Below are positions 3,349-26,346 of a stretch of 56,893 nucleotides of DNA, in pieces. Source of the DNA: a virus (Duplodnaviria > Caudoviricetes); the IMG/VR virus record IMGVR_UViG_3300032287_003360, positions 1 to 56,893 of that record, one strand, 5' to 3'. Positions within the stretch are counted from its first letter, which is position 1. Every line of letters starts with the position of its first letter. The position numbers and the translations under genes are program-made. The notes below the pieces were generated by a model, which was not told the DNA's origin, ran no database searches, and saw only the letters and a list, made by a program, of their open reading frames with translations.

Positions 3349-3374
3349 TTTAGAGGTTCCTTAGAAATGAGTTG

Positions 3375-4866: not shown

Positions 4867-4878
4867 AACAGGCTCCTA

Positions 4879-5250
4879 TTACGCGCTGTAAAGGCTGTCC
4901 CAGGTACCTGCGACCATGCACACGAACATGCAGCTCCTCTGCGCGGCAACGCCGCCAGAAAACGCCGCGTTGACTGCGCCGTTGTTAATGGCTTCGCCGG
5001 TAGCCGGGTACACCGCCAGAGCGCTTGCGCCTTTGTTGAACACAACAATACGCGCGCCAACAGTCGCCGCCGGAAGGCGAACACCGGTAGACGCGGCGAC
5101 CGTGGTCACACGCTGGAAAGTTGTGTAGTCCAGTGCCAGCGCGGTACCCTGAGTCGAACCGGCGGCGGTCAGGCCAGTAACGGTCGACGAAAGGTCAAAG
5201 ACTGCGTTGGGGATATCACTGGGATCGAGAAAGCTTTTACGAACCGACAT
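4879..5250 (-). CDS. Putative virion protein
   Basis: 123 aa, Ala/Thr/Val-rich, GAGG RBS. Confidence 0.6.
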   Translation of the reverse strand: MSVRKSFLDPSDIPNAVFDLSSTVTGLTAAGSTQGTALALDYTTFQRVTTVAASTGVRLPAATVGARIVVFNKGASALAVYPATGEAINNGAVNAAFSGGVAAQRSCMFVCMVAGTWDSLYSA

Positions 5251-5283
5251 TGGCTTTTACCTCACGAAGAAATCGAGTTGAAA

Positions 5284-5625
5284 TTAGATGGGCTTGGCGT
5301 TCGCAGCAGGCGAAAAACCAGCCATGTGGCCCTTGCCGCCGGAAACCTTGAAAGAATTGTCGCTGCCCGAACCAGGACCAACAGACACCTTGCCAGGCTG
5401 AGAAGCGCTGGCACCCCGCTGCTTACCCATGACACCGGTCCTGCCGCCCTTGGCCGCACCTTTGTCAGTCGGAGCAAGGCTCGGGCGGTTAGACATGCCA
5501 GGTACCTGCGGAGCTGCGTCGGATTTGCCGAACATCTTGGTCGATCCGCCCTTGGCACCGATACCGGCGCTTTCGGATTTCACTTTGGATTTGCCCGAAG
5601 GCATCGAGTTTTTGGTCTTCACCAT
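5284..5625 (-). CDS. Small basic Lys/Gly/Ser-rich protein
   Basis: 113 aa, repeated AKGG motifs, GAGG RBS. Confidence 0.7.
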   Translation of the reverse strand: MVKTKNSMPSGKSKVKSESAGIGAKGGSTKMFGKSDAAPQVPGMSNRPSLAPTDKGAAKGGRTGVMGKQRGASASQPGKVSVGPGSGSDNSFKVSGGKGHMAGFSPAANAKPI

Positions 5626-5634
5626 GGTTTTACC

Positions 5635-5907
5635 TCAGTATTTCTTGCAGGAGAGTTGTTTGCCCTTACCACTTACCATGGTTTGGGCGTTTCCGTCCTC
5701 CTGAAACTTGGGGAGGTAGGAACTTGCTTTTTTGCCAGAGGACGAGGAACCACCCACGGCTTCCTTCATAGCCCTCGACGGCTTGTATGGCTTCGGTTTC
5801 GGGATGTAACTCTTGCGCGGTTTCTTCATGCCAAGGTTCATCCCAGGTCCTTTAACCTGCCTGACGGCGGACTTCATACCTCTGGATTTTGTGAAATCTT
5901 TCATCAC
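5635..5907 (-). CDS. Small basic Lys-rich protein
   Basis: 90 aa, overlaps the portal stop. Confidence 0.6.
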   Translation of the reverse strand: MMKDFTKSRGMKSAVRQVKGPGMNLGMKKPRKSYIPKPKPYKPSRAMKEAVGGSSSSGKKASSYLPKFQEDGNAQTMVSGKGKQLSCKKY

Positions 5908-7988
5908 GAACCCCCTGAAATATTAGTACGCGGCCCCATGTCGCCGGAAGCACCAGTGCCCTGCTGCCCACCCTGCGCCAGTGCAGCCTGCTCGCCCAGA
6001 CCCGAGTGGCCAGGAATACCCTGCTGCTCAGCCTGTATAGCAGCCATCTTCTGCATGCCGTCAAGCTCATCATCAGATGGTACGATCTGCTCGCCTGGCA
6101 AGCCGATCGTCTGTGCAACGTTGCGAAGAATAGCCGCGCGACCCTTGGGACCAACGATCTGCGCATCGATCGGGTTGGCCGTGATCTGAAGAAACTCAAG
6201 CTGACGAGCACGTTGGGTTTCTTTCTGCACCGCGACAGACACACCCAGAACGCGGACTTTCTCCTCACCAGTCAGCATGCCCGACTGATCAGTGAGCATG
6301 ACCATGTCGTAGAGCGCACTTAGAAGCGGATCAAGAACATCACGATCGATGTTCGCCGCAACTGTCTGGAGGATCTTGGACGCATTGCCCATGAGCATTG
6401 CAAGCCCTGAAGCCGTGCGCCCTGCGCCGCCTGTAGCTCCAGACCCAGCAAGATATTTCGGTATGGCCGAGAGCTCATCGGCCATATCCACAAAACGCTG
6501 GTAAACCCCCAGCAGTTCCTGCGCGTTCGAGTTCGGCTGGAAGAAACTCACCGGAGGGGCACTGTTGTTACCCATCGGATCGCTCTGGACGTGCCAGCGC
6601 TTCCATGGATAAAGCTGCTCGCCATCTTCGTCGTTGGAAATCCGATCATCGTTCACAACGACCTGCGGACCTGAAGATATGCTCAGGTTGTTGATCAGCG
6701 CGCGAAGCGTAGCGTTGCTCGCCTCCTGCACGTCGTTGAGAATGTCGGGAAGCCCGTTACCGACAGGGGTGCCTGGTACCTTCTCAAAGCTGGTGATGTA
6801 GTAGGGGTGCCGTTTCCTCGGCGAAGGCGCCATCTGAACCTTGATGACATAGTTGCCAACCAGCCATGCCTGCACAAAGTAGTCCCGCAGCGGGTCCGCA
6901 ATCAGATCTTCTTCCAGGCCATAATCAAGCAACATCTGGCCCTGAATATTGCCTGTGTACTCAAGGCAGTTGATCATCCCCGACTGGTTAAGGCTCGGGT
7001 TTTCGCGGGACTCCTGTACGGCGCGCTCATTGTCAGTTGAATCCCAATTGTCAGCCAGACCTCCCTGGCCATACAAGCGTAGCACTTCGCGCAGGGCTTC
7101 CTGATTGTAGCCCGGCAAATCGAGCAGGTCATTGAGATCGGCCCTCGTAAGCCTCGTGCGCTCGATTATGGCCGCATCTTCAATGTCGCTGACGCCGGGT
7201 GTCCACCAAATATCGAACGGTGAAATGCGCATCCAGGTGAGACGCGGCATCTGCTTGACGACCGCTTCGTTGCTTTCCCAGATAACCGTCGGAACAATCC
7301 TGACAACAGGCCCTTTGATGCACGCAAAGGGAAACAGAGGAAGATCAGAGATAAACTCAGCCAGCGCTTTATAGAAGCCACCCTGTTTGAGAAGCTCGTC
7401 AAGCTTATCCTCAGCGACGCGCGCCTGATACCCGACTTTCTTCTTGGCAGCCTGGCGGGCAGCCTCAACAAGCTGCTGAGTACGATCGCGAATAGCATCG
7501 ATGTCAGGAGGCTGACCAGCACCAGCGAGCCCGGCAATCTCCGAAGTCACCAGCTCGTTGATCGATTTCATGATGTCTTCAGGAATTTTCGGATCGTCAG
7601 CAGGATCGAGTCCCCATGGGCGATCCGGGGAGAGATACACGTCCCGCAAAAGCGAGCTTGCTCCCCGGCATTTCATCGCGACGACACGGGCATAGATTTC
7701 CGAACCGCCAAACTGCTTGATCTCGGTTAGCTTGGCTGCGTCATATTGTCCATTGAAGACCCGCAATGCATTGAGGAGCCGATCTGACCAACCTGAGTAC
7801 GTATTGGACCGATGGCGCTTCATCTGATCAAACTCTCTGCGGATGTACCCCGCAAGGTTTGTCATCACTTCAGATGAAGAATTTGCTGCATCCTTGGCAG
7901 CAGCCATCTCTTCGTCACGCGCCTTGAGGGCAGCGTCAAGCTCGTTAGGACCGACAACGCGCAAGACTGCGCCCAATGCTTGTGCCAT
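5904..7988 (-). CDS. Portal protein
   Basis: About 694 aa from ATG 7988; RISPFDIWW, GNGLPDIL and GRTASGLAMLM motifs of podovirus portals; first gene of the head operon. Confidence 0.88.
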   Translation of the reverse strand: MAQALGAVLRVVGPNELDAALKARDEEMAAAKDAANSSSEVMTNLAGYIRREFDQMKRHRSNTYSGWSDRLLNALRVFNGQYDAAKLTEIKQFGGSEIYARVVAMKCRGASSLLRDVYLSPDRPWGLDPADDPKIPEDIMKSINELVTSEIAGLAGAGQPPDIDAIRDRTQQLVEAARQAAKKKVGYQARVAEDKLDELLKQGGFYKALAEFISDLPLFPFACIKGPVVRIVPTVIWESNEAVVKQMPRLTWMRISPFDIWWTPGVSDIEDAAIIERTRLTRADLNDLLDLPGYNQEALREVLRLYGQGGLADNWDSTDNERAVQESRENPSLNQSGMINCLEYTGNIQGQMLLDYGLEEDLIADPLRDYFVQAWLVGNYVIKVQMAPSPRKRHPYYITSFEKVPGTPVGNGLPDILNDVQEASNATLRALINNLSISSGPQVVVNDDRISNDEDGEQLYPWKRWHVQSDPMGNNSAPPVSFFQPNSNAQELLGVYQRFVDMADELSAIPKYLAGSGATGGAGRTASGLAMLMGNASKILQTVAANIDRDVLDPLLSALYDMVMLTDQSGMLTGEEKVRVLGVSVAVQKETQRARQLEFLQITANPIDAQIVGPKGRAAILRNVAQTIGLPGEQIVPSDDELDGMQKMAAIQAEQQGIPGHSGLGEQAALAQGGQQGTGASGDMGPRTNISGGS

Positions 7989-8077
7989 GAAAATAAAATC
8001 CCGGCTCTCGACGATCACCCCCTAAATACAGTATGATGGGGGTGGAATGCAACTACTTATCTTTGCGGAGACACTAT

Positions 8078-10544: not shown

Positions 10545-10974
10545 CGGAGATACTGAGACAGTTGCAGGCTTCCCACCTGTCCCCGGCGCGCGGGAGAGCG
10601 CCAGCTTAAGGTCCCCATGCCATGAGGCATACGCGACGGTCGCCCATATAGGGATGACGGCACGCGAGGTGGACGGTTCGGCCCCACGCGGCACCTAGTA
10701 AGACCGCGCTGCAAGGGGCGAAGCGGGAAGGATTTGAAAATAACATAATCCTAGGCCGCTTCAGGAAGCCGAAACTATCGCACCATTGCATCATGGGGCG
10801 CCGCAAGCCGCAAGAGCGGCCCCGCGCCATAGGTAGTAACTCCGAAAGATCGGCTCGGTTTACGGTTCAATGCCAAAACCGTGAAACTCATTAACAGGCC
10901 GGGAGGTCAGAGCCCCGGCCCTGTTACTTTCCAAAGTTATCATTATGTTACCATTAGATTGCTTTGGAAAGTAA
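10545..10974 (+). ncRNA. Candidate large structured RNA with hammerhead-like basal junction
   Basis: No credible ORF; more than 10 hairpins plus long-range pairs GGCTTCC/GGAAGCC, ACTATC/GGTAGT and CGGAG/CTCCG. Confidence 0.6.
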
Positions 10975-10989
10975 TAGGAGGATAATCCA

Positions 10990-11214: not shown

Positions 11215-11549
11215 ACACAACCTTAGGGTGATATGGGAACCTTGTAAGAACGTCACCTGAAAGACGCCAGCGGCGGTGCTCTCTATTCATATTCTTAATT
11301 CTTAATTCTGTATTATATATATATATGGGAGTAAAGTTGCTGCCATGCGGCAGTGACCCGCCCCCGCATCATCTCATCATCCCATCATCCCATTTTCCAA
11401 AAACCCCGAAATTTTTTATTGAGAATTAAGAATAAGAACTTATCGTTCAATATCAATGACTTAGCTCGTTGATATTCTGAACCGGCTTTTTCGTGTGATC
11501 AATTCCTGTCACGCTCGTGGCGGCACCTTGGCTGGAGCATGTGTCACCT

Positions 11550-11611
11550 CACATAGTTTTGCCACAATCGCACATAGTTTTGCCACAATCGCACATAGTT
11601 TTGCCACAATC
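11550..11611. repeat. 21-bp tandem repeat x3 (iteron/operator-like)
   Basis: CACATAGTTTTGCCACAATCG x2 plus a 20-nt third copy, non-coding. Confidence 0.9.
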
Positions 11612-11676
11612 TGCGAACGTGGTGCGATGACCCGGCAAACAGCAAAAGATCGCTGACGATTTCTTGTGATCACTTC

Positions 11677-11705
11677 TTGACACAAGCACAAGCGCGCTTT
11701 ATATC
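11677..11705 (+). promoter_or_regulatory. Sigma70-type early promoter
   Basis: TTGACA-N17-TATATC. Confidence 0.6.
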
Positions 11706-11708
11706 ACC

Positions 11709-11999
11709 GTGACAACTTTTGATCACATGAGGCACTATCTCGTGGCGACTATTGAACACATGCACGTGGTGGATATTGACAGCATGATATCAGATTTGCT
11801 CACAGAACGTGCCGAGATTAAATCGCGGCAAAGAGATATAGCCCGGCTTTTGCATGCCTTACGCATGAAGAGGCAACGTGGCGTGATGAAAGTTGATCAC
11901 AAGTCCTTGCCTTCAGCTCCCGTGGAGCGTACAGAAATCGAAGCAGTGCTGGACCCCAGCCTGTCAGATAACGAAACCGCCGAGGACATCGGCGGGTAA
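11709..11999 (+). CDS. Hypothetical early protein (start uncertain)
   Basis: Coiled-coil-like; stop lies in a GTAAC half-site. Confidence 0.55.
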   Translation: MTTFDHMRHYLVATIEHMHVVDIDSMISDLLTERAEIKSRQRDIARLLHALRMKRQRGVMKVDHKSLPSAPVERTEIEAVLDPSLSDNETAEDIGG

Positions 12000-12036
12000 C
12001 CTCAAGAAGTAAATCACAACCAAGGAGAACTATCCT

Positions 12037-12810
12037 ATGACTACGCTTGCCCACGACACTCAGAACGACAACCGCTTCGAGCTGGCAATCAAGCGCGCTC
12101 GTGAACTCGGACGCGACTCCGTGAAGAGTGCGCTGTCCAAGCCCAATCTGGCAATCGAGCTGGTGCGCGGCATTGTCGATGACGTCATCGATGATGACAC
12201 CAAGATCGAAGGGCTCTTCGATGCCTATGTGGCGGCGCGCACCAAGGAAGTTGCGAAGCACGCCACGGCCCTGGGGGCCAACGAGGACAACGAGAACTCG
12301 ATCAAGTCCAATCGCTCCAAGCATCGGCAGCTTGCCCTCATGGCGAACCTGCCCATCCTCAAGAAGGAAGAGGACGGCGCGGTTCAGTTACTCGAAGAAG
12401 TAACCGAGCGGCGCACCGCGCTGATCTCTGGCGGTATCAAGGTCAAGCCGACCTATGATGCGTATGTCGATGTTGCGCGGGCACAGCTCAAGCAGGATCG
12501 CGAGCGGATTGGCGGCGACCTGATTGACGCCATCATCGCCAAGCCCGACGCCAAGGAAAGTGAGCTGATCGACAAGCTGATCACTCAGTACAAGGGGGTC
12601 TATCGCCTTGCCGAGAAGATGGCAGCCGACCAGGTTGACGTGACGCACATCGACACAGCGCGCCATGCGCTCGGTGACGCGATCACTGCCTTGGGATACG
12701 AACTCCCGGCCATGACCAAGGAGTCCAAGAAGGAAGCTGAAGTTGTCGGCTTCCTGATGGCCAAGGGGTTCGGCAAGGAGCAGGCGCGCGAGATCGCCCT
12801 GAAGAAGTAA
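12037..12810 (+). CDS. Hypothetical early protein (all-alpha)
   Basis: 257 aa, AAGGAG RBS, strong GC3 codon bias. Confidence 0.85.
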   Translation: MTTLAHDTQNDNRFELAIKRARELGRDSVKSALSKPNLAIELVRGIVDDVIDDDTKIEGLFDAYVAARTKEVAKHATALGANEDNENSIKSNRSKHRQLALMANLPILKKEEDGAVQLLEEVTERRTALISGGIKVKPTYDAYVDVARAQLKQDRERIGGDLIDAIIAKPDAKESELIDKLITQYKGVYRLAEKMAADQVDVTHIDTARHALGDAITALGYELPAMTKESKKEAEVVGFLMAKGFGKEQAREIALKK

Positions 12811-12837
12811 CTTCGCAAGGTAACCCTGCGAAGTAAC
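12807..12837. repeat. Triple GTAAC chain, 13-bp period
   Basis: GTAAC-TTCGCAAG-GTAAC-CCTGCGAA-GTAAC. Confidence 0.9.
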
Positions 12838-12845
12838 GCACAAGA

Positions 12846-13036
12846 TGACGGGCAGTAACCTCCTCCCCTGCCCGTTCCCATCATCACACCGTAATATCGC
12901 ACCAACCAGAGGCTTCCCCAGCGCATAAACGCTTGAGCCTGTGCGGCGGTGTGGTGGTGTGGCGAGCGCACTCTCCAGAACGCCGCAGCTCTGCTGACGT
13001 AAGTCGGGGGATGGGTGCGCTCACCACATCATCACA
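12846..13036 (+). promoter_or_regulatory. Structured leader with alternative pairings
   Basis: 12947-12972 can pair with either 12879-12891 or 13014-13036 using G-U wobbles. Confidence 0.5.
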
Positions 13037-13053
13037 TTACTTCAGGAGGTAAC

Positions 13054-13278
13054 ATGGACTGCAAGCTATGTGGCAAGCCGATCGTCCTCTCGCCGTCAGC
13101 GGCGCACCGCGCTGCCAAGTATGGCGGCGAGCCGGAGGATTACACCAAGCTGTTCACAGTACACAGCGAGTGCGCTAAATCCCAAAACGAAGCAGAATTG
13201 CTGGAATTGCTGATGCGCCGCCGGGAGCAAGTCAAAGCAAATCGTGTCGTGCTCAAGTCAACACCAACGGAGGAATAA
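13054..13278 (+). CDS. Hypothetical protein, CxxC/HxxC possible Zn binder
   Basis: MDCKLCGK...HSEC; ATG follows TTCAGGAGGTAAC. Confidence 0.75.
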   Translation: MDCKLCGKPIVLSPSAAHRAAKYGGEPEDYTKLFTVHSECAKSQNEAELLELLMRRREQVKANRVVLKSTPTEE

Positions 13279-13279
13279 C

Positions 13280-13537
13280 ATGACCTACACCTATCACACG
13301 GATCCCAGCCACGGCTGGCTTGAAGTCCCTGTATCGGACCTCATGGGCCTGGGGCTGAAGCCCGAAGACTTCAGCGAATACTCCTATCGCAGGGGGGAGT
13401 TTGTGTTCCTCGAAGAGGACTGCGATGCTTCCGTGTTCGTCGATGCTTATGTCCAACGACATGGCGCACGCCCCCAGTTCCGTGAAGTCCACACGGACAG
13501 TGACCATCCCATCCGCGCCTATGATCGGATCAAGTAG
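13280..13537 (+). CDS. Conserved phage hypothetical protein
   Basis: TDPSHGWLEV...YSY...FLEEDCDA motif recalled from phages; GGAGG RBS. Confidence 0.8.
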   Translation: MTYTYHTDPSHGWLEVPVSDLMGLGLKPEDFSEYSYRRGEFVFLEEDCDASVFVDAYVQRHGARPQFREVHTDSDHPIRAYDRIK

Positions 13538-13566
13538 CTTCAGCTATTACTTCACGAGGTAACATC

Positions 13567-13782
13567 ATGACATGGGTGGATATACCCAAGCCCGCCGCTG
13601 CTCAATTCAAAGCGCTTGTCGCGCGCCTGCAAGAGCGCCTGACGAATTGCAAAGCCTCGCGCAAATTGAAAGCAGCCAACCCCAACGAATACCAGGCTGC
13701 ATGGACAAGTGGCTATGACGCCTCTCTCGATGACGAGATCGAGTTCCTGAGTGATCTGCTCGCCGCCATCGAGAAATCGTAA
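13567..13782 (+). CDS. Hypothetical protein
   Basis: 71 aa, bounded by motif copies. Confidence 0.75.
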   Translation: MTWVDIPKPAAAQFKALVARLQERLTNCKASRKLKAANPNEYQAAWTSGYDASLDDEIEFLSDLLAAIEKS

Positions 13783-13812
13783 CTTCACGAAGTAACTTCA
13801 GGAGGTAACTTT

Positions 13813-13992
13813 ATGCTCGCATACATCAAAAATGTGCTCACCTGGCTGGGGATCGGACTGCTGGCCACTGCCGGGTTTCTCCTCGGTGTCGCTGTCTGGT
13901 CGCTGATGTTCGGCGCTGTTCTGCTTGCGCTGTTGAGTGCGGTATACCTAGCCTTGAGAGCGTTTTCCTACCTGTTCGAACTCCTGGCGTGA
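13813..13992 (+). CDS. Small membrane protein (not in ORF track)
   Basis: MLAYIKNVLTWLGIGLLATAGFLLGVAVW..., 59 aa, hydrophobic; motif-borne GGAGG RBS. Confidence 0.7.
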   Translation: MLAYIKNVLTWLGIGLLATAGFLLGVAVWSLMFGAVLLALLSAVYLALRAFSYLFELLA

Positions 13993-14007
13993 AATAAGTA
14001 CGCCACC

Positions 14008-14286
14008 ATGTACAGCCATTGCTCCTATCGCATAAATGTCTCGACTTATGTCGAGTGGTTGATACCCAAGAGGGAGCAGCGGATCTTCATCCCAACCTAT
14101 AACGGGACTGTGGCTGACGGGCGAATAGAAAAAAATATTGATGATGTGATATCAAAATTGCCCGCCATCCTGTCTTGGAAACAACATGCTGCCGTCACTG
14201 TGAAGATCACGATGGTACTGAAACACGTGCATACCAACGTAATTACAAAAGTAGTTCGTGTCGTCACCCTGCATTCAATTACTTGA
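14008..14286 (+). CDS. Hypothetical protein
   Basis: 92 aa, weak RBS, stop inside the motif. Confidence 0.5.
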   Translation: MYSHCSYRINVSTYVEWLIPKREQRIFIPTYNGTVADGRIEKNIDDVISKLPAILSWKQHAAVTVKITMVLKHVHTNVITKVVRVVTLHSIT

Positions 14287-14298
14287 GGAGGTAACATC

Positions 14299-14523
14299 AT
14301 GGCACACACCAATGATATCGGGCTCGCAATCGTCGATGGGTTGCACGAGCTCGAACTTGTAGGGCGGTGGGAACGCCCAACATTCGACTGGACAAAAGAA
14401 GATCCAGAAGAAACCGGAAATAAGATCATCCTGAGCGTTGACGCTAGTTATAGTTTCAGCGATCTCATCATCGAATCGTCGGACAACTGCAAATTCCGCG
14501 TGTCGGTGACGCGCATCGGGTAA
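14299..14523 (+). CDS. Hypothetical acidic protein
   Basis: 74 aa, bounded by motif copies. Confidence 0.75.
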   Translation: MAHTNDIGLAIVDGLHELELVGRWERPTFDWTKEDPEETGNKIILSVDASYSFSDLIIESSDNCKFRVSVTRIG

Positions 14524-14550
14524 CTTCACGAAATAACTTCAGGAGGTAAC

Positions 14551-14751
14551 ATGCTCAGCATCGACAGCAAAGACTGGAAGCTGCGATATTTCGATCGCGT
14601 GCTCACGCTTATGTACAGGCCGACAGGGCGCATGCGCACCTATCATGGGCGGGACATGCTGCCGAGCGACCAGCACCTTGTCGCCATGAGCGAGCGAAAG
14701 TTCAATGCCCTGTGCCGAGAGATATTTGACACAGGCGGGCGCGCATGGTGA
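14551..14751 (+). CDS. Hypothetical protein
   Basis: 66 aa, motif-borne RBS. Confidence 0.75.
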   Translation: MLSIDSKDWKLRYFDRVLTLMYRPTGRMRTYHGRDMLPSDQHLVAMSERKFNALCREIFDTGGRAW

Positions 14752-15119
14752 CCCAGACCGTGTCTTATGTAGTCGCTACAGCTTTTTCTAAGCGCCGAGC
14801 ATATAGAGCGAGCGCTAACACGTCCACTGATGGCAAGTCGGTTACTTTACATGGTAGCAAGATCGCATGGTGGAACGATGACGGGTCCGTATCGTTGACG
14901 CTTGCGGGGTACCCTACCCCCACAACACGGGACCGGCTCAACACTATCTGCATGGTACTGGGATACGGTCATCCTTTCTACCAGCAGGGCTTTACTCAGT
15001 ACCACAGCGGGGCAGAAATCGGACAACATAGCGTCATCACATATCACCCGCTCTCTGGGGAGCTTGACCCGGAGAAGTTACTTCAGGAGGTAACTTCGGG
15101 AGATAACTTCGGGAGGTAA
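14745..15119 (+). CDS. Conserved phage hypothetical protein
   Basis: LHGSKIA...GYPTPTTRDRLN motif recalled from early phage genes. Confidence 0.7.
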   Translation: MVTQTVSYVVATAFSKRRAYRASANTSTDGKSVTLHGSKIAWWNDDGSVSLTLAGYPTPTTRDRLNTICMVLGYGHPFYQQGFTQYHSGAEIGQHSVITYHPLSGELDPEKLLQEVTSGDNFGR

Positions 15120-15120
15120 C
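15077..15120. repeat. Quadruple half-site chain, 13-bp period
   Basis: GTTAC-TTCAGGAG-GTAAC-TTCGGGAG-ATAAC-TTCGGGAG-GTAAC. Confidence 0.9.
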
Positions 15121-15121
15121 T

Positions 15122-15442
15122 ATGAAAGACGACAAACTGCGAGTGCTCGTGCATCGGCGCACACCTGAAGGCAAGCTTAGCAGTGAGTTCTATAGAGCAC
15201 ACCCTACTAGCTCCGTCTGGCGTGAAGCTAAAATGCTACGCCGCACCAATCCGTATAAGGTGTACAACCTGTTGCTTGACCATGTAAGTGAACTTCAAGT
15301 CCTGCCAGACTCAACAAAACAGTGGCACGCCGTTATAAAGGACAACACCCACGGCCCTATCTACAAATTGGACGTGGTCCTCGACCTTGGTGTTGACGCC
15401 AAAGTCGTCGCAACTAGACACATACACTACCTTATAGAGTAA
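15122..15442 (+). CDS. Hypothetical protein
   Basis: 106 aa, bounded by motif copies. Confidence 0.75.
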   Translation: MKDDKLRVLVHRRTPEGKLSSEFYRAHPTSSVWREAKMLRRTNPYKVYNLLLDHVSELQVLPDSTKQWHAVIKDNTHGPIYKLDVVLDLGVDAKVVATRHIHYLIE

Positions 15443-15456
15443 CTTCAGGAGGTAAC

Positions 15457-15738
15457 ATGCTCACATCATATCATCGTTTCATGCACACTGCTGCACTGTG
15501 CGCCAGTGCAGTGCTGTTCAAGTGTGCATCCATGGCGCTTGACAGAGCGATTCACCACAAGAGCGAGATGAACGCACGAGCTCGCACGCGATCGTTCGGA
15601 GTTCACCCGCCCTACGAGATGCCGCCAGACTTCCTTCGCCTGGCGCCACCGTCGGCCAACAAGTGGGTTGAAGCAGAACCTTGCTCTGACTTCGATCCGA
15701 TCCACCCTGATTACACGGAAACTTACTCGGAGAAGTAA
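15457..15738 (+). CDS. Hypothetical protein
   Basis: 93 aa, bounded by motif copies. Confidence 0.7.
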   Translation: MLTSYHRFMHTAALCASAVLFKCASMALDRAIHHKSEMNARARTRSFGVHPPYEMPPDFLRLAPPSANKWVEAEPCSDFDPIHPDYTETYSEK

Positions 15739-15739
15739 C

Positions 15740-15874
15740 ATGATCCGCGACTATCTCGTCGGTGCAGCTCTCATGCTCGCCCTCTGGCTGGCAGTCGGCT
15801 GGTGGAACGCGCCAGCCTACAAAGCGTGCGCCAAGTCACACTCCCAGGAGTTCTGCTACACGGTGCTGAAGTGA
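15740..15874 (+). CDS. Small membrane-anchored protein
   Basis: MIRDYLVGAALMLALWLAVGWW..., 44 aa, ATG directly after GTAAC. Confidence 0.65.
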   Translation: MIRDYLVGAALMLALWLAVGWWNAPAYKACAKSHSQEFCYTVLK

Positions 15875-16173
15875 GCTTGTCAGATGACACTGTCGCTGCG
15901 TTGCAGCTACTCATGAGCGACTTGACCCCGGACGAGCGTTGTGATGCGTTTCGCAAAGCGTTCGATGATACCATTATTTTCCGGTCCCCGGTAGGTATGA
16001 AGATCTTCGAAGGCTACATGCACAAGCTTTACGCGGAGCTAAAAGAAGTATGCGAAATCACGGACGGAAGCTCTGGCCTTGGTGTCGTCGCTGTGAAGAA
16101 CCTGCACACCAGGCTCAGAAATGCCTTAGCGGTATCGGGTAGTGCAGCCGCTCTCTGTCATGTAAACATATAA
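15871..16173 (+). CDS. Hypothetical protein
   Basis: GTGA overlap with previous gene; 100 aa. Confidence 0.55.
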   Translation: MSLSDDTVAALQLLMSDLTPDERCDAFRKAFDDTIIFRSPVGMKIFEGYMHKLYAELKEVCEITDGSSGLGVVAVKNLHTRLRNALAVSGSAAALCHVNI

Positions 16174-16192
16174 GATTTGGGAGCAAGAAGCC

Positions 16193-16729
16193 ATGATTAC
16201 TTTGGTAGGTTACTACCCCAAGGCCATCGAGCAGGTATGCAATGATATCGATGCAACGTACCAGCATTGGTATCAAACGGGTATTTTTGTGCTACCTAGA
16301 CCGTTTGTTTTCGATGGGCATTCGTGGCGGCGCAAGCATGACAAAGGCATCAAGCTGCCCGCTTCCGCGCTGCGTAACATCGTCAATCGTGCTGCAAAAG
16401 AGCTCAAGCGTCCTATAATCACCTACAAAAGACTATTCGCGGTCGACGCCGACAATCCTCCTTCTACCAAGTGGCGTGACCGCACTTACCTAGTCCATGG
16501 CGGAGTGCTTGAAATTAAAGGACGCAAGTATCTGTCGCCTATCATAAACCCGCTAATGCTCGTTGCCAAAAGACATTACGAAGTAGGGCAGGATCAGTGC
16601 CCGCTAGTTGTAGAACAAACACCCACGAAACTATACTTTCGCTTCTACGACACTGAACTTCTCGACAGCATGCTTGAGAATTTCCGCACGCGTGAAGAGA
16701 TGCGCGCGGCACTGAAACTACCAACGTAA
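16193..16729 (+). CDS. Hypothetical protein
   Basis: 178 aa, GGAG RBS, stop in the motif. Confidence 0.75.
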   Translation: MITLVGYYPKAIEQVCNDIDATYQHWYQTGIFVLPRPFVFDGHSWRRKHDKGIKLPASALRNIVNRAAKELKRPIITYKRLFAVDADNPPSTKWRDRTYLVHGGVLEIKGRKYLSPIINPLMLVAKRHYEVGQDQCPLVVEQTPTKLYFRFYDTELLDSMLENFRTREEMRAALKLPT

Positions 16730-16743
16730 CTTCAGGAGGTAAC

Positions 16744-16920
16744 ATGGCCCGTGAAAAACCGATCTGCTCCAGGTGCAAGTCAGACAATGTCCGACTGGAT
16801 GCGTTCGCGAAGTGGGATATCGACAGGCAGGAATGGGTCTTGTGGAAGACTTATGACTACAGCCACTGCATGCAATGCGAGGAGGAGACGCGCCTCGTGT
16901 GGGTCGAAGTCGCAGCGTAA
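16744..16920 (+). CDS. Small Zn-ribbon-like protein (not in ORF track)
   Basis: MAREKPICSRC...HCMQCEEE..., 58 aa, bounded by motif copies. Confidence 0.75.
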   Translation: MAREKPICSRCKSDNVRLDAFAKWDIDRQEWVLWKTYDYSHCMQCEEETRLVWVEVAA

Positions 16921-16953
16921 CTTCGAGAAGTAACTTCCAACAGGAGAACAACG

Positions 16954-17526
16954 ATGAAGAAGTCAACACAAAAAGAAATAGTCTGGAGCGAGTTTTCTCG
17001 TGCTCTGGCAAATGCGATCGCAGATAAATTTCTGGCACCAGAAAGAGAGGCCGTTGAGGCTACTCTGAAGGACCTGAAAGACAGGGTCGTGAACGAGCAC
17101 TACTTGCCCCTCAAAAAGCATTTGGACAAACTGCCGGATGGAGTGGTGGGTGTGGGGAGTGGTGTCTTTGTTGCGTGCCCTGAACTCAAACGGGGGCTAT
17201 CTATGTATGTGAGGGTGTCGCAAGATATTCAACGTGTTCCGCATGCGCTGTTCCTGCCAGCATCATTGTTCGGTGCTCTTAAAGCGGCTCAGGAAACGAG
17301 AAACGAAATTGAAAGACGTGCCGAAGCTCTGGCTATGGACCTGTGCAACAACATCGTGATGGCCGACAGCTTCGAAGAAGTCATCGCCAAGTGGCCAGAG
17401 TGCAAGGAACTCGCCGAAGAATGTGCAGTGAAGCACGCCACGACGATGTGCTATCCTTTGTCGCGGATCCTCGGCAAGTACAGCTTGGCTCCTCTTCCTG
17501 CACCCGAAGCAAAGCGCCTGACGTAA
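16954..17526 (+). CDS. Nmad5-like hypothetical protein
   Basis: 190 aa, C-terminal EEVIAKWPE pattern resembles Nmad5 (recall). Confidence 0.5.
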   Translation: MKKSTQKEIVWSEFSRALANAIADKFLAPEREAVEATLKDLKDRVVNEHYLPLKKHLDKLPDGVVGVGSGVFVACPELKRGLSMYVRVSQDIQRVPHALFLPASLFGALKAAQETRNEIERRAEALAMDLCNNIVMADSFEEVIAKWPECKELAEECAVKHATTMCYPLSRILGKYSLAPLPAPEAKRLT

Positions 17527-17542
17527 CTTCAGGGGGTAACTC

Positions 17543-17797
17543 ATGCCTGAGAAAACCGTAAACGAAGTCATCAGAGATATGATTATGGATGCTTTTGGCT
17601 GGCATATTACTGCCAGTCGGCGGATCGATGCGCATGGTACTCTCCATTTTGCTCCCGAAGACAACCACGATCGCCGAATGCTTCTCATATACGTTCGAGA
17701 AGGCCGGTGGTCGCGGGTTAAAGCGAAACTTCCATATGTCGGGATCAGCGAAAGTAAACAGGACACTATCCGCAACGCAATCACATTACTTGAGTGA
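17543..17797 (+). CDS. Tandem paralog family member 1
   Basis: KTVNEVI...DAF...IRNAITLLE. Confidence 0.8.
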   Translation: MPEKTVNEVIRDMIMDAFGWHITASRRIDAHGTLHFAPEDNHDRRMLLIYVREGRWSRVKAKLPYVGISESKQDTIRNAITLLE

Positions 17798-17804
17798 GTA
17801 ACTC

Positions 17805-18095
17805 ATGACCATAGAAGAGACCCATCTGGAAGTAATCCAGGAACTTCTTCGACAGTTCCCGGTGCGGCAGTGCTACGACAAGGACGGTAAGAAATGCGGG
17901 ATATCGAAGACACGCCAGTACCGCGCCAGGGAAAAAGCGCTTGCGGAAATGCAGTATATTTTGACGCAAACACAGCGGGGTTATTTGTGGAAGTCCACAT
18001 ACCGTAAGGACAGATTTGGGTATGTGATAAAGAACCTCGTTCGTGGCGGCGTTCCCGAGCAAGTCCTCAGCAGCGTTTTCTTGTTACTTGAGTGA
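17805..18095 (+). CDS. Divergent member of, or insert in, the paralog array
   Basis: EVIQELL at N-terminus, LLE C-terminus encoded by the motif. Confidence 0.7.
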   Translation: MTIEETHLEVIQELLRQFPVRQCYDKDGKKCGISKTRQYRAREKALAEMQYILTQTQRGYLWKSTYRKDRFGYVIKNLVRGGVPEQVLSSVFLLLE

Positions 18096-18102
18096 GTAAC
18101 TC

Positions 18103-18366
18103 ATGCCAGAAGAAAGAGCTGACCCTGACAAATGTGCGGTCATCGTGCAGATGCTTTTCGATGCTTACACGCGGAGACCTGTTGAGTACCTTAGCAATAT
18201 ACCAAACACCTTTAGCAGTGTCCACATGGCACGTTCTTACCGGTACGAGCTTCTCGAATACGCCAGCGAAGGGCATTTCCAGCTTGTGAAGTTCACGCTT
18301 TGGCAGACCGGTATTAGCCCGGACGACCAAGTCGCTATCCGCAACGCCATCACATTACTTGAATGA
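18103..18366 (+). CDS. Tandem paralog family member
   Basis: VIVQMLFDAY...ISPDD...IRNAITLLE. Confidence 0.8.
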   Translation: MPEERADPDKCAVIVQMLFDAYTRRPVEYLSNIPNTFSSVHMARSYRYELLEYASEGHFQLVKFTLWQTGISPDDQVAIRNAITLLE

Positions 18367-18373
18367 GTAACTC

Positions 18374-18622
18374 ATGACCGATAATGCAGACAAGAAAACC
18401 GCAAACGAAGTCATCGCGCAAATGCTTTCCGATGCTTACGATCGAAATCCCGTCGCGCTTGATGCTAATTCAACTGCCCAGCTAGTACGCTTCACGCGAA
18501 ACGATGCTATATTTTCCGCAGTCAGTGGGCGTTTTGAGTATGTGCGCCGCCAGCTTTGCATGCTTAAAATCAGCAAGGACGACGCGGTCACTATCCGCGA
18601 CGCCATCATGTTACTTTCGTAA
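18374..18622 (+). CDS. Tandem paralog family member
   Basis: KTANEVIAQMLSDAY...GRFEYVR...IRDAIMLLS. Confidence 0.8.
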   Translation: MTDNADKKTANEVIAQMLSDAYDRNPVALDANSTAQLVRFTRNDAIFSAVSGRFEYVRRQLCMLKISKDDAVTIRDAIMLLS

Positions 18623-18629
18623 GTAACTC

Positions 18630-18869
18630 ATGGTTGAGAAAACCGCGAACAAAGTCATCAAGCAAATGCTTTTCGACGCTTACGAGCGAAACCCCGTCGC
18701 CGCGCGCTATGCTGATTCAACTCCTCCGCTAGTACACTTCACGCGGGACGCGGTTGTATGTTTTGCAGACCGTGGGCGTTTTGAGTATGTGCGCTATTCG
18801 CTCTCCAGACTTAAAATCAGCGCAGATGACGAGATCGCTATCCACAACGCCATTACGTTACTTTCGTAA
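18630..18869 (+). CDS. Tandem paralog family member
   Basis: KTANKVIKQMLFDAY...GRFEYVR...IHNAITLLS; visibly similar to the previous gene at DNA level. Confidence 0.8.
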   Translation: MVEKTANKVIKQMLFDAYERNPVAARYADSTPPLVHFTRDAVVCFADRGRFEYVRYSLSRLKISADDEIAIHNAITLLS

Positions 18870-18907
18870 GTAACGCACAAGGATCAGTATAGGAATACAA
18901 TCCTGTA

Positions 18908-18936
18908 TTGACAAAAGGTTGTCAATGCGTTATGTG
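18908..18936 (+). promoter_or_regulatory. Sigma70-type promoter with palindrome over -35
   Basis: TTGACA-N17-TATGTG; ATTGACAA-AAGG-TTGTCAAT inverted repeat. Confidence 0.55.
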
Positions 18937-18985
18937 TTGCAACCGTACTGTTCTTCTGTCCAACCCAACTTGAAAGGAAACTGCT

Positions 18986-19324
18986 TTGAACACCTCCACC
19001 ATAGGCAACCCAACCAATCCCGTCAATGACTACAGCGGTTCGATCAGCGCGCTGATCGACGCGCGCAGCAGAACCCATGGCGATTTCGATGATCACGCCC
19101 GCATCACGCAGCAGATCAAGAATGTCTGCTATGCGGAACTGACGGAGAGGGAACTGCGGAGCCAGGACCGCCTCACATCTCAACAGATCGAAGCCCTCGA
19201 CATGATCGCCCATAAGATCGGGAGGATCCTTGCTGGCGACCCGTGCTTCAAGGATCACTGGGATGATATCGCGGGTTATGCCATGCTCGCTGCCCGCGAA
19301 GCCGACAAGCTCAGCCGTCTGTGA
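18986..19324 (+). CDS. DUF6378-like protein
   Basis: R..THGDF...EALDMIAHKIGRILAGD....DHWDDIAGYA. Confidence 0.75.
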   Translation: MNTSTIGNPTNPVNDYSGSISALIDARSRTHGDFDDHARITQQIKNVCYAELTERELRSQDRLTSQQIEALDMIAHKIGRILAGDPCFKDHWDDIAGYAMLAAREADKLSRL

Positions 19325-19408
19325 CGTAGTCCGGTTACTCTAGGAAGTAATTCCTAGAGTAACCTACCCATAACATCATTTCACGAAACACCAGAACAGG
19401 AGAACAGC

Positions 19409-19735
19409 ATGAAAGTGGACGACGTGATGGATCATATCGAACTTGCCGAAAAATTCATGAATGATTTGAAGCCGTGCCCTTTTTGCGGAAGCAAGGGCGA
19501 CCTTGTTTATGTGGAGGCCTCAGACCGAAAGGAGGTGTATGTGCAATGCTCGCATTGCGCTGCGAGAGGCCCGTCACAGGTCAGCCTTGTTACTTTGCAA
19601 GGTAAGTTCGTCGAGTCTGTGGCCCCCCTGTGCAAGAAAGCATCTCTCTCCTGGAACTACAGGCCCGCTGTCGGGAGAATTGTTGCGTCATCATCCATAC
19701 CAAACACCAGAACAGGAGAACAGCATGAAATCTGA
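19409..19735 (+). CDS. Lar-family restriction alleviation protein
   Basis: LKPCPFCG...VQCSHCAARGP...WNYR. Confidence 0.75.
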   Translation: MKVDDVMDHIELAEKFMNDLKPCPFCGSKGDLVYVEASDRKEVYVQCSHCAARGPSQVSLVTLQGKFVESVAPLCKKASLSWNYRPAVGRIVASSSIPNTRTGEQHEI

Positions 19736-19943
19736 ACCGCTCGCACGGTTGTACCGTCCGAGCCCGGCCAGTTTCTTCCCGGAAACCGATATCGTTGCGA
19801 TGCTCGATGGAGACCGCAACATCGTCTACTTCCGGCAAGACCTCTTCGATCGGTTGTCGTCTCTTGATCAGTCGAAGGTCTACAATCTGAGAGACAAGTA
19901 TCTGCGGTTCACCACCACGGAACCCGGTTACTCCTACAGGTAA
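19725..19943 (+). CDS. Hypothetical protein
   Basis: MKSEPLARL..., AGGAG RBS, stop in the motif. Confidence 0.7.
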   Translation: MKSEPLARLYRPSPASFFPETDIVAMLDGDRNIVYFRQDLFDRLSSLDQSKVYNLRDKYLRFTTTEPGYSYR

Positions 19944-19969
19944 CAACCCACAACTCACGGAGAACTATC

Positions 19970-21055
19970 ATGAAGCTCAAGACTTTTTCTCGGCTTGCCA
20001 CTTCGCTCTATGTCTCTGGCAAGTGCGTGTATCTTCGCTCTGGTCCTGGTCGCGGCAAGACCACGACGATCCTCGACACGATCCCGCGCATCGCTGCTGC
20101 TACCAAGAAGCGGCTGGGTGTGTCGGTTGTCTCTGGCCCCAACCTCCAGCCCGGTGACACTGTCGGTTTCGGTATCCCCAAGCACAGCGAGAAGCATTCC
20201 GAAATGGTGTTCACGCTGCCCTTCTTCTGGCGCACCGAAGAGGGCAAGCTTCTCGAAGAGTATGACGGTGGCGTGATCTTTGTTGACGAAGCCGACAAGA
20301 TGGACGTTGACATCAAGAAGGTCATGGGTGAGATGGCGCTTTCTGGCCGCTGCGGTCCTCATCGTCTGCCGCCTGGTTGGGTGGTGTGGATGGCTGGCAA
20401 CCGTGCCGAGGATCGCTCCGGTTCCACCAAGGAACTTGATCACCTCATCAACCGGCGATACGAGATCAACGTCGATGACGACATCGAAGGCTGGGAAGAA
20501 TGGGCGCACAAGAACGGCGTGCATCCGTCGATCATCGCCTTTTCTGTATCCAACCCTCAGATCGTGTTCCCCGACAAGCTCCCCGAGAAGCAGGGTCCGT
20601 TCTGTACCCCCCGCTCGATCGTCAGTGTCGGCGAGGTGCTGGTTACTCTGTCAGGTAACCCCGATGGCAACCTGCCAACTGATACCGACGCAGTCGAGCT
20701 CGCTGCCGCTGGCATCGGTCCTGCTGCCGCTGGTCAGTTGTTCGCTACCTTGCGGCTTGAGGCAGAGTTGCCGAGCATCGAGAGCATCATCAACAGCCCT
20801 ACCACTACCAGGTTGCCCACAAAGCCCGACGCGCAGATGCTGGTCTGCTACAAGCTAGCGTCTCTGACCAAGGCGGAGAACATCACGCCGGTCATTACCT
20901 ACATCGAGCGCTTGCCTGCTGACTTCGCTGCCACTTATGCCAAGGCGGTTGTGACGCGGGTACCGACACTCGTCGCCCACAAGGCGGTGCTCGACTGGAC
21001 CAAGCGTAACGCCACACTGATGTCCACACTGTCGATGCTCAAGTCGGCGGCTTGA
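19970..21055 (+). CDS. MoxR-like AAA+ ATPase
   Basis: Walker A SGPGRGKT, Walker B IFVDE, sensor AGN, LINR, TPRS. Confidence 0.88.
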   Translation: MKLKTFSRLATSLYVSGKCVYLRSGPGRGKTTTILDTIPRIAAATKKRLGVSVVSGPNLQPGDTVGFGIPKHSEKHSEMVFTLPFFWRTEEGKLLEEYDGGVIFVDEADKMDVDIKKVMGEMALSGRCGPHRLPPGWVVWMAGNRAEDRSGSTKELDHLINRRYEINVDDDIEGWEEWAHKNGVHPSIIAFSVSNPQIVFPDKLPEKQGPFCTPRSIVSVGEVLVTLSGNPDGNLPTDTDAVELAAAGIGPAAAGQLFATLRLEAELPSIESIINSPTTTRLPTKPDAQMLVCYKLASLTKAENITPVITYIERLPADFAATYAKAVVTRVPTLVAHKAVLDWTKRNATLMSTLSMLKSAA

Positions 21056-21462
21056 TGGCGCACGTCAAGGTCGGGCGTTACAAATTTCACGGCTCGGAAG
21101 TTGAAGTTACTATGAAAGGTAACAACGACTTCCGAGAGACGTGGGCCGCCCGCTTCTGGGGTAACATAGACAAAACCGAATACTACCGAATGGTCGGCGG
21201 TGTTCTTAACTGGGATCACATCATGGCACGTAAAACCTACCGCATCGAACTGAAAATCGACTTCAACGACGACTCCAGACATGAAGCGCTTATCGGGGTG
21301 GCGAAGCAGTACGCTCGCGATTTCCTTGCCAGCGCCACGCTTCTCCAGGACCGAACCCGGCCTGCGTGCGTTCTCATCACTGACGATACTTTCGTCGGTA
21401 TGGAGGAAGTCAGCATCATTCCGGAGAGCGTCAACATCCACAAGGCTGGCGATGGACAGTGA
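21052..21462 (+). CDS. Hypothetical protein (start uncertain)
   Basis: 136 aa, between the AAA and vWA genes. Confidence 0.6.
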   Translation: MMAHVKVGRYKFHGSEVEVTMKGNNDFRETWAARFWGNIDKTEYYRMVGGVLNWDHIMARKTYRIELKIDFNDDSRHEALIGVAKQYARDFLASATLLQDRTRPACVLITDDTFVGMEEVSIIPESVNIHKAGDGQ

Positions 21463-21646
21463 CACCGCCAAGCTACTCGTCAAGGCGCTGTTGCTTTTCA
21501 ACGACAAGCAACGCTTTGTGCTACGTCGCGGGGGTCTTGACTCCTACGTCGTAGCTCACGAGATCACGCAACACCTCAAAGCCCATGGTCTGGATTGGCT
21601 GGACCCTGAGCTCCAGCCACCACCTGCTCGTTACCACGCAAAGTAA
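21452..21646 (+). CDS. Hypothetical protein
   Basis: MDSDTAKLL..., 64 aa, stop in the motif. Confidence 0.55.
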   Translation: MDSDTAKLLVKALLLFNDKQRFVLRRGGLDSYVVAHEITQHLKAHGLDWLDPELQPPPARYHAK

Positions 21647-25963: not shown

Positions 25964-25992
25964 TTGACAAGTTACGGGTAAGTTATTATATG
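25964..25992 (+). promoter_or_regulatory. Sigma70-type promoter of wHTH gene
   Basis: TTGACA-N17-TATATG; spacer contains GTTAC. Confidence 0.6.
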
Positions 25993-26019: not shown

Positions 26020-26346
26020 ATGGACGCCACCACAGAAGATAAACCGATCGAGCTTGCTGACTTGCAGGTAAAGTTTCGGCTCTCGACCAGCATGGCCAAG
26101 GTCGTGATGCTATTGTTGAACAACAAGCGCGTCACTACGAACATGATCGAGTTTGATCACAAGATCGTAGTGGATGCTGGAGTCACAATTCATCACATTC
26201 GCCGCCGCCTTGAGGGCAGCGGTATTGTAGTTCGGTCTCAGCGCGACGTTGGGTACTGGATCGACGCGGATTCTAGGGTCAAGCTTTATCAGGCTCTCGG
26301 CATCGAAACACCTGTCGTTACTTCGCAGAGTAACCATAATGCATAG
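26020..26346 (+). CDS. Receiver-less OmpR/PhoB(CtrA)-type winged-helix protein
   Basis: VTIHHIRRRL...IVVRSQRDVGYWI matches the recognition helix and wing pattern. Confidence 0.65.
   Translation: MDATTEDKPIELADLQVKFRLSTSMAKVVMLLLNNKRVTTNMIEFDHKIVVDAGVTIHHIRRRLEGSGIVVRSQRDVGYWIDADSRVKLYQALGIETPVVTSQSNHNA

Follow-up and report, generated by a model that had tools for sequence, protein, structure and literature searches.

An 18-bp dyad element recurs throughout a podophage-like genome and merges with stop and start signals at its early-gene junctions

The early genes of the virus genome IMGVR_UViG_3300032287_003360 (IMG/VR; Caudoviricetes) are for the most part separated by very short sequences built around the pentamer GTAAC, which raises the question of whether these are signals for translation, binding sites for a protein, or joints at which genes are exchanged. 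The DNA analyzed, the whole of which is called the window below, comprises a complete virus record, 56,893 bp in length, and ends in direct terminal repeats (123 bp by direct check). A sequence-only reading had described the early region, 12807-19944, as a row of unrelated open reading frames (ORFs), each a self-contained module between near-identical elements holding the stop of one gene and the Shine-Dalgarno (SD) sequence and start of the next. The element was found at all 14 coordinates that it gave as examples, which confirms the observation itself. The dyad is a real, strongly non-random, family-conserved cis element. It stands at most early junctions but is not confined to them, being spread over the genome and over a whole phage family.

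The element is an 18-bp dyad, GTTACY-N6-RGTAAC, with RRGTAAC as its half-site. The variant GTAAC-N8-GTAAC is the same dyad carrying A in place of the middle T of its left arm, and this change produces TAA, a stop codon, on the sense strand. GTAAC occurs 161 times on both strands of the window, compared to 69 ± 9 times in 100 shuffled sequences (maximum 92). When GTTAC-Nx-GTAAC was searched with x from 0 to 20, 18 matches were obtained for N8, one for N7, two for N20 and none for any other spacing. GTAAC-N8-GTAAC was found 11 times on the plus strand and once on the minus strand, and the divergent form GTAAC-Nx-GTTAC was absent at every spacing examined. The core TWAC-N8-GTAA gave 95 matches on both strands, corresponding to 57 distinct sites, compared to a mean of 1.29 and a maximum of five in 100 shuffles; the core is palindromic in 38 of the 57. 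The early span holds 23 of the 54 sense-oriented sites. There is no −35/−10 pair within the 18-mer and no T-run after it.

The sites and related repeats of the early region are as follows.

12807-12837, plus strand: three-half-site chain GTAAC-N8-GTAAC-N8-GTAAC; its first TAA ends the conserved 257-aa early gene 12037-12810
13036-13053, plus strand: dyad ATTACTTCAGGAGGTAAC, its spacer holding the SD; ATG directly after it, at 13054 (0 nt)
13546-13563, plus strand: dyad; ATG at 13567, 3 nt downstream; upstream TAG 9 nt outside the element
13779-13809, plus strand: three-half-site chain, 13-nt unit × 2.5; the upstream gene ends at the TAA of its first GTAAC, and the next ATG is at 13813
14278-14295, plus strand: dyad; upstream TGA in the spacer; ATG at 14299
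14520-14550, plus strand: three-half-site chain, near-identical to the 13779 chain; its first GTAAC holds the stop, and the next ATG is at 14551
15077-15120, plus strand: four-half-site chain, 13-nt unit × 3.2, with the repeated spacer TTCGGGAG; ATG at 15122
15439-15456, plus strand: joint GTAACTTCAGGAGGTAAC followed by ATG; strain homology starts exactly at 15439 in three metagenome runs
15722-15742, plus strand: dyad plus ATG; one or more extra cassettes here in other strains
16726-16743, plus strand: joint identical to that at 15439; its first GTAAC holds the stop, and the next ATG is at 16744
16917-16934, plus strand: dyad followed by a separate C/A-rich leader with SD (type B junction); ATG 19 nt downstream
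17523-17540, plus strand: joint ahead of the first of five paralogues; ATG 2 nt downstream
17785-18874, plus strand: five dyads (17785, 18083, 18354, 18610 and 18857), four of them followed by TC and ATG
19332-19363, plus strand: 32-nt perfect palindrome on dyad arms (GTTAC-N20-GTAAC), after gene 18986-19324
19383-19414 and 19699-19730, plus strand: 32-nt direct repeats comprising a C/A-rich leader, SD and ATG, flanking the Lar-like gene 19409-19735
19927-19944, plus strand: dyad with the stop of gene 19725-19943 (type B junction), 25 nt before the ATPase start

On direct reading, 16 junctions have the upstream stop within the element. At ten of them (12807, 13779, 14520, 15116, 15439, 15735, 16726, 16917, 17523 and 19940) a GTAAC supplies it as its TAA; at the other six (14284, 17795, 18093, 18364, 18620 and 18867) the spacer contains it, as TGA or TAA. 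Two of the examples offered for this arrangement do not show it, as the TAG at 13546 lies outside the element and no gene lies upstream of 13036. An SD sequence had also been noted in many spacers, and GGAG, GAGG or GGGG is indeed present there at the non-paralogue joints. In 14 of the 22 hand-curated early genes only 0-3 nt separate the last GTAAC from the ATG; six early genes (11742, 13280, 14008, 14745, 15913 and 16193) lack the element.

The joints of 18-31 nt are near-identical to one another. Three junctions are arrays of a 13-nt unit whose chain spacers are near-identical as well, and the chain 12807-12837 is itself an 11-bp palindrome. Gene 14745-15119 reads through the chain 15077-15120 and takes its TAA from the last GTAAC. 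The ORFs are not all unrelated, as had been supposed, because 17543-18869 consists of five tandem paralogous small genes. In their five dyads the left half and the spacer encode the conserved C-terminus (..TLLE* or ..LLS*) together with the stop.

Over the whole genome, the density of the dyad tracks the expression class of the genes, early >> middle > late. An element lies within 45 nt upstream of 16 of the 22 early genes, six of 25 middle genes, none of three packaging genes and three of 28 late genes. In the middle genes, 17-27 nt lie between the dyad and a distinct C/A-rich leader downstream, which has an SD of its own; therefore dyad and SD are separable elements, merged only at very short junctions. 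About 20 sites in the window have no nearby start or lie inside open frames. Sites outside the early region include the following.

779-796, minus strand: palindrome GTTACTTTCGAAAGTAAC, perfect over 18 bp and accompanied by another half-site, upstream of late gene 312-752
10495: dyad in non-coding DNA
20642-20659, plus strand: dyad inside the ATPase gene 19970-21055; a dyad also stands at this position in the two closest relatives whose sequence extends over it
37531, 41430 and 43089: dyads inside the gene for a 2473-aa protein

Large composite palindromes of nested dyad arms were also observed, at 10923-10975 of the window and in two related loci (L031, 14127-14168; L048, 7244-7285). They are non-coding and located downstream of the terminase gene, a position conserved among relatives, and those of the two related loci fold at −15.7 to −24.7 kcal/mol.

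Relatives of the virus were collected as about 100 IMG/VR loci, from searches with the terminase, ATPase and primase. The cultured Rhizobium phages RHph_TM27A/B, TM29 and TM3_14A have the same genome plan as the window; the sources are freshwater and soil, and Rhizobium is the only host on record. The dyad was found in many of the relatives, at 48-64% G+C and at ATPase identities down to 35-40%; conserved so widely, it cannot be due to chance or have a purely local origin. In the 50-kb genome of RHph_TM27A there are 30 copies of TTAC-N8-GTAA and 11 with N7 spacing. On the GenBank gene map of this phage, 27 of 45 sites fall at a gene boundary or no more than 15 nt from one, including gaps between convergent and between divergent genes, while non-coding DNA makes up only 11% of the genome. 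A 680-bp non-coding gap is among the places occupied, and the other 18 of the 45 lie deep within coding sequences. Between two other related loci (L042 and L043) the dyad forms a 21-nt island of identity within a diverged segment.

The inner positions and the spacing differ between lineages, with TTACT-N6, TTACC-N6-GGTAA, TTACC-N5-GGTAA and, in one lineage, TTTCC-N5-GGAAA. Such lineage-specific variants are what a co-evolving pair of protein and site would give. One relative (L026) carries 12 copies of another palindrome, TTTCCCA-N-TGGGAAA, in place of the TTACC dyad, which may reflect a change of specificity within one and the same system.

Megablast of 12000-20000 against 50,697 phage records returned no match, and no related loci were found with the early protein 15457-15735 in viral contigs or with the 257-aa early protein in metagenome contigs. 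The exact 17-nt joint occurs in 12 loci among viral contigs, of which only two (L112 and L113) are motif-bearing relatives; the other ten have low G+C (28-41%) and at most two dyads each, look like chance, and were rejected as relatives. A literature search found no paper on the motif or on repeats of RHph_TM27A-like genomes.

An element that so often joins a stop, an SD and a start could act in the RNA, where it would be a standard module for translation initiation or translational coupling, or else be recognized by an endoribonuclease or an RNA-binding repressor, much like the start-associated sequences (SAS) of Cluster K mycobacteriophages; RegA and RegB of phage T4 offer a comparison. We regard this as rather unlikely. 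The two halves of the dyad were compared by a permutation test in which the right halves were permuted within genomes (428 non-redundant sites, 1000 permutations). At the mirrored inner positions, 738 Watson-Crick pairs were observed compared to 793 expected, and all 1000 permutations reached or exceeded the observed value, so that the trend is significantly opposite to the covariation of a hairpin. Such independent variation of the halves is the pattern predicted for two half-sites read independently. The arms are invariant and do not drift with compensatory changes. Nor is there an excess of wobble pairs: family-wide, the sites away from starts gave 39 U·G compared to 34 C·A, and those of the closest relative five compared to six. 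The commonest early joint, GUAACUUCAGGAGGUAAC, has a minimum free energy of 0 kcal/mol as RNA, and other sites range from −1.5 to −4.9 kcal/mol. No Rfam match was obtained in the window (0, as for tRNA genes). The sites between convergent or divergent genes, in non-coding DNA and deep within coding sequences are places where a signal in mRNA makes little sense, and in the middle genes the dyad stands apart from the SD.

Several observations nevertheless speak for RNA and weigh against a site read in double-stranded DNA. The tight distance of 0-3 nt to the ATG points to translation, as does the stop placed inside the element at so many junctions, and the element is densest in early genes. Its stop-bearing TAAC form stands in the sense direction in 16 of 19 copies, and on the sense strand of the window positions 6 and 13 are T..G in 27 sites compared to C..A in four. 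Both biases fit an element acting in RNA, and both could also be explained by the use of the site as stop codon and SD. Inverted copies can form hairpins of 6-7 bp that bury the SD (−1.8 to −4.9 kcal/mol). Some long-spaced dyads (N17-N32) enclose self-complementary inserts, with the arms resembling the base of a stem; the palindrome 19332-19363, folded as 19334-19363, gives −18.8 kcal/mol, compared to −4.7 kcal/mol with its interior shuffled. Finally, the mixture of N7 and N8 spacings in RHph_TM27A is easier to reconcile with a hairpin than with a rigid dimer. Taken together, the independent halves and the commonest joint, which does not fold, favor a double-stranded site for a dimeric protein, and the hairpin was judged less likely on the wobble asymmetry, the within-genome permutation and the folding.

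Two further kinds of site were considered and rejected. An N4-like hairpin promoter for a virion RNA polymerase, an idea prompted by the 2473-aa protein, was set aside because no polymerase match was obtained and the sites are too many and genome-wide. The 13-bp spacing and the symmetry do not fit the −35-like boxes of extracytoplasmic function (ECF) sigma factors or CtrA- or LexA-like boxes.

The reading that we tentatively prefer is that the dyad is a double-stranded binding site for a dimeric regulator, probably encoded by the phage itself. Such a regulator would bind dyads across the genome and control early expression globally, for example by shut-off or as a roadblock, in the manner of an operator at each gene. 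The early-operon junctions are only 18-44 nt long, and therefore the binding site overlaps the translation signals. The upstream gene ends either at the TAA within GTAAC or at a stop codon carried by the spacer; the inner half of the right arm, rich in purines, doubles as the SD, and the start codon comes 0-3 nt later. The near-identical joints and leaders would in addition offer short homologies, so that ORFs could be inserted, replaced, deleted and duplicated by ordinary recombination, as a by-product.

The protein could instead be a conserved host factor, a transcription factor or nucleoid protein whose site is exploited by the phage family. The near-invariant arms across phages of such different G+C content would suit a host protein, and so would the apparent dependence of transcription on the host RNA polymerase. 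This dependence is suggested by the lack of an RNA polymerase among the window proteins scanned (55 proteins against PHROGs and 55 against Pfam; the 2473-aa protein also against PDB) and by the sigma-70-like promoters that can be read from the sequence at 11677, 18908 and 25964. A phage-encoded partner fits better with the inner positions and spacing, which vary by phage lineage and include the TTTCC...GGAAA form. The hosts, from freshwater and soil, are moreover presumably diverse, and the dyad is not known to match alphaproteobacterial operators such as those of CtrA and LexA. A host protein is, in our judgment, distinctly unlikely.

Among the proteins of the phage, one weak candidate for the dyad binder was found, and it is a lead rather than a finding.

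25964-25992, plus strand: promoter-like TTGACA-17-TATATG for the winged-helix gene
26020-26346, plus strand: conserved 108-aa protein with a predicted OmpR/PhoB-type winged helix, candidate dyad binder

The product of 26020-26346 gave faint winged-helix matches in NCBIfam and nothing in Pfam at E ≤ 0.01. With a profile of five homologues searched against PDB, the five best matches were all OmpR/PhoB-type DNA-binding domains, with weak E-values of 0.011-0.7. The predicted structure (predicted local distance difference test score, pLDDT, 77) has the order H-H-H-H-beta-beta, with a helix-turn-helix and a beta-hairpin wing, and its best Foldseek matches were the DNA-binding domains of SaeR, AdeR and PhoP (E 0.03-0.4, template modeling score ∼0.5). 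The protein is conserved in the window, the closest relatives, RHph_TM27A, where its homologue is EVB29_062, and several others. However, all of its PDB and Foldseek matches are at E ≥ 0.01, OmpR-type domains usually bind direct rather than inverted repeats, and the protein was not detected in four of five further complete motif-bearing genomes, a gap that would be expected if the binder came from the host. Two other proteins were considered as binders and dropped. For the 257-aa early protein the Atlas was uninformative and NCBIfam gave a weak match to an RpoD region (E 3.8e-4; 19.6 bits compared to a cut-off of 555), and the conserved 125-aa protein 26804-27181 has a conserved C-terminal domain that gave no lead.

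The remaining possibility is the one put forward by the sequence-only reading in its strong form, namely that the element is a dedicated recombination joint, the early ORFs are mobile cassettes and the chains of half-sites are scars of empty sites. Early-gene content is, as far as the sequence comparisons reach, hypervariable between relatives: only seven ORFs of the span gave any tblastn match in 17 related loci, most of them partial genomes, and the closest relative shares only short blastn pieces of the span. Variation between near-identical strains was followed in four freshwater metagenome runs from three studies, which hold 30-43% of the sequence words of the span and whose contigs were compared over 11500-21500. 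Stretches left uncovered by the contigs of runs X3-X5, such as 14172-14505, were not counted as evidence.

In three of these runs, homology to near-identical strains starts exactly at 15439, the first base of the joint. At the joint 15722-15742 some contigs depart after GTAAC and ATGA (15743) and others enter at 15738, and from these loose ends it follows that other strains carry one or more extra cassettes there; the form found in the window corresponds to a join at the microhomology ACATGA. The cultured phages RHph_TM27A and TM29, which are 99.3% identical, differ by the replacement of a 340-bp ORF between two start codons, its left edge lying just past one ATG and its right edge being the next ATG, which is preceded by a dyad in TM29. 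A 16-bp indel between the same two phages takes one half-site from a chain. The early regions of TM3_14A and RHph_TM27A have the same gene map apart from a 9-nt difference in the methyltransferase gene, a comparison made from the annotation table only.

The other changes took place elsewhere. In one run the Lar-like gene 19409-19735 has been removed by a deletion of 316 nt, from 19385 to 19702, between the 32-nt leader repeats, which are not dyads. In all four runs a 271-nt deletion from 18158 to 18430, well inside coding sequence, fuses two of the paralogues. Further breakpoints lie within genes at 13403, 13446, 14462 and 15310. Only three of about 14 strain-level breakpoints are at the element (15439, 15738 and 15743), most of the others being intragenic or between paralogues, and since nearly every early junction has an element, a breakpoint there is inseparable from a breakpoint at a gene boundary. 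Family-wide, 64 of 2204 ends of blastn homology lie within 12 nt of a dyad compared to 43 expected, an enrichment of only about 1.5-fold.

The strain comparisons also revealed natural variation. The Lar-like restriction-alleviation gene, a candidate for anti-restriction, is present in some strains and absent from others, and the number of paralogues in 17543-18869 varies in nature, as seen from the 271-nt deletion. Contigs of X4 and X5 lack the segment 20840-21044, with which the ATPase gene ends at its C-terminal side, and have 33 different letters in its place. At 13194-13212, in early gene 13054-13278, there is a 9-nt tandem duplication (GAATTGCTG × 2), of which all four runs have one copy more.

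The idea of gene exchange at the joints is partly supported, with insertions and a replacement bounded by the element or its ATG in strains from three studies and in two cultured isolates, and as crossover points the junction sequences are joined by other short homologies. Nothing points to a site-specific mechanism. The crossover point is not fixed, being at times the ACATGA microhomology, at times a start codon and at times the leader repeats, and recombination between paralogues or within genes is at least as common. No tyrosine or serine recombinase and no transposase was detected among the scanned proteins, in agreement with the sequence-only reading and in contrast to an integron-like cassette system. 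The element is conserved far beyond the variable region, with copies in conserved genes, in the late region, in non-coding DNA and between convergent genes; therefore it is not primarily a cassette joint. As to the scars, the near-identical spacers of the chains and the change of chain length between isolates look like slippage of the 13-nt unit. We consider a dedicated recombination joint very improbable; recombination is at best a secondary consequence of the element.

A further possibility joins these functions: one 18-bp element would be operator, stop, ribosome-binding site and portable joint at once, giving plug-and-play cassettes that need no integrase. We think this unlikely. An ORF placed between two copies would be automatically terminated, translated and put under the same global regulator, and the phage family could trade early genes (for host takeover or anti-defense) without a recombinase. 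The effect would be analogous to that of integron attC sites or of the promoter early stem-loop (PeSL) cassettes of T4-type phages, here built on the binding site of a regulator.

Short repeats distributed over phage genomes are known from several systems. The stoperators of Cluster A mycobacteriophages (sites of L5 gp71) are dozens of short protein-binding copies in short intergenic gaps near stops and starts, which exert global control of expression; they lack dyad symmetry, point in the direction of transcription and are the sites of the immunity repressor of temperate phages. The element described here differs from them in being a dyad, and no repressor or integrase was detected in the PHROGs and Pfam scans.

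One close likeness is to the repeats of Cluster O mycobacteriophages, 17-bp dyads of the form TGTTCGG-N3-CCGAACA. As presented in the sections on these repeats in Cresawn et al. (2015; PMC4351075), they are found in more than 30 copies per genome, are denser in one region and conserved within the group, and many are intergenic with about a third inside genes. The authors predict a dimeric DNA-binding protein, give the function as unknown, describe the phages as not obviously temperate, and in the same sections report few if any of the repeats at indels. Common to both are the fixed-spacing dyad, the large number of copies (57 sites here) and the maintenance within a phage group. The sequences are unrelated, hosts and phage family differ, and the geometry here is one of 5-7-bp arms with N8 between the pentamers. 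In addition, at 14 early genes the present element forms one unit with stop, SD and start; one of its variants is asymmetric and bears a stop, and some strain breakpoints coincide with the element.

The SAS of Cluster K is, in the parts of Pope et al. (2011; PMC3203893) devoted to it, a 13-bp conserved repeat with an SD core, placed 3-8 nt upstream of the starts of non-structural genes that are unrelated to one another, sometimes with the upstream stop inside it; its function is given as unknown. The extended form (ESAS) adds inverted repeats that are thought to be protein-bound (PMC3203893). An SD-bearing repeat just before the start is shared only with the early subset here (14 of 22 genes). 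In the account given there, the SAS is asymmetric, of single orientation, bound to starts and restricted to one half of the genome, whereas the present element is a dyad of unrelated sequence that also occurs without a start (within genes and between convergent genes) and apart from the SD in middle genes.

In the PeSL cassettes, as outlined by Arbiol et al. (2010; PMC2839356), the small, non-essential ORFs of hyperplastic regions lie between repeated regulatory motifs, and recombination between the motifs shuffles, deletes and inserts genes. They are a published precedent for gene shuffling at repeated motifs. A PeSL consists of a sigma-70 promoter and a terminator stem-loop, whereas the element here has no promoter hexamers and a weak hairpin at best, and it also occurs outside the variable region. 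Comeau and colleagues (2014) are said to have studied such T4-type cassettes as well. By its sequence features, the element shares traits with the Cluster O repeats, the SAS and the PeSL cassettes and is a member of none of these groups.

What sets the element apart is the union of two features that have been described separately, an operator-like dyad repeat and a start-associated translation module. It is conserved over a large family of uncultured freshwater and soil phages and is also present in cultured Rhizobium phages, whose host is non-pathogenic, hence is unusually tractable, and the strain-level data supply concrete cases of early-gene turnover at junction sequences. If the regulator were found, its regulon would cover nearly every early gene of a phage, and the dyad could be used as a sequence tag for early genes and junctions in related metagenomic phages.

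The genome in which the element lies has, on its PHROGs and Pfam assignments, a podophage-like layout.

312-8018, minus strand: capsid and portal genes (PHROGs and Pfam)
8033-36909, plus strand: terminase, run of small ORFs, ATPase, DUF2201 VWA/metallopeptidase, DNA polymerase, exonuclease, VRR-NUC, helicase and primase/helicase
11677-11705, plus strand: sigma-70-like promoter read from the sequence, TTGACA-17-TATATC, ahead of the early operon
36969-56877, minus strand: virion proteins of 2473 and 1117 aa, tail fiber and lysis genes

A scan for consensus promoters and terminators performed no better than in shuffled sequences (19 compared to 12.3 ± 3.2 and 23 compared to 18.3 ± 4.1, respectively). 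Directly 5′ of the early promoter-like site, at 11550-11611, there are three perfect 21-nt tandem repeats (CACATAGTTTTGCCACAATCG), and copies of TGTGATCA and TGATCACA lie on both sides of this site, within 11497-11735. Together these repeats may be a second operator or an origin-like set of iterons.

The two large virion proteins are encoded on the minus strand at 36969-47743. That of 1117 aa has an SLT transglycosylase domain; that of 2473 aa gave no sequence match in Pfam or PDB, and in PHROGs only families of unknown function and a DarB-like match. In the annotation of RHph_TM27A (MN988461.1), the homologue of the primase/helicase is called 'putative integrase' and attL and attR are marked inside genes. 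PHROGs place the window homologue with primase/helicases, and therefore the annotation of RHph_TM27A as a temperate phage looks doubtful. In-frame tandem repeats are present within late genes at 4204-4295 (12 nt × 7.7), 46283-46451 (78 nt × 2.2) and 51811-51904 (21 nt × 4.5).

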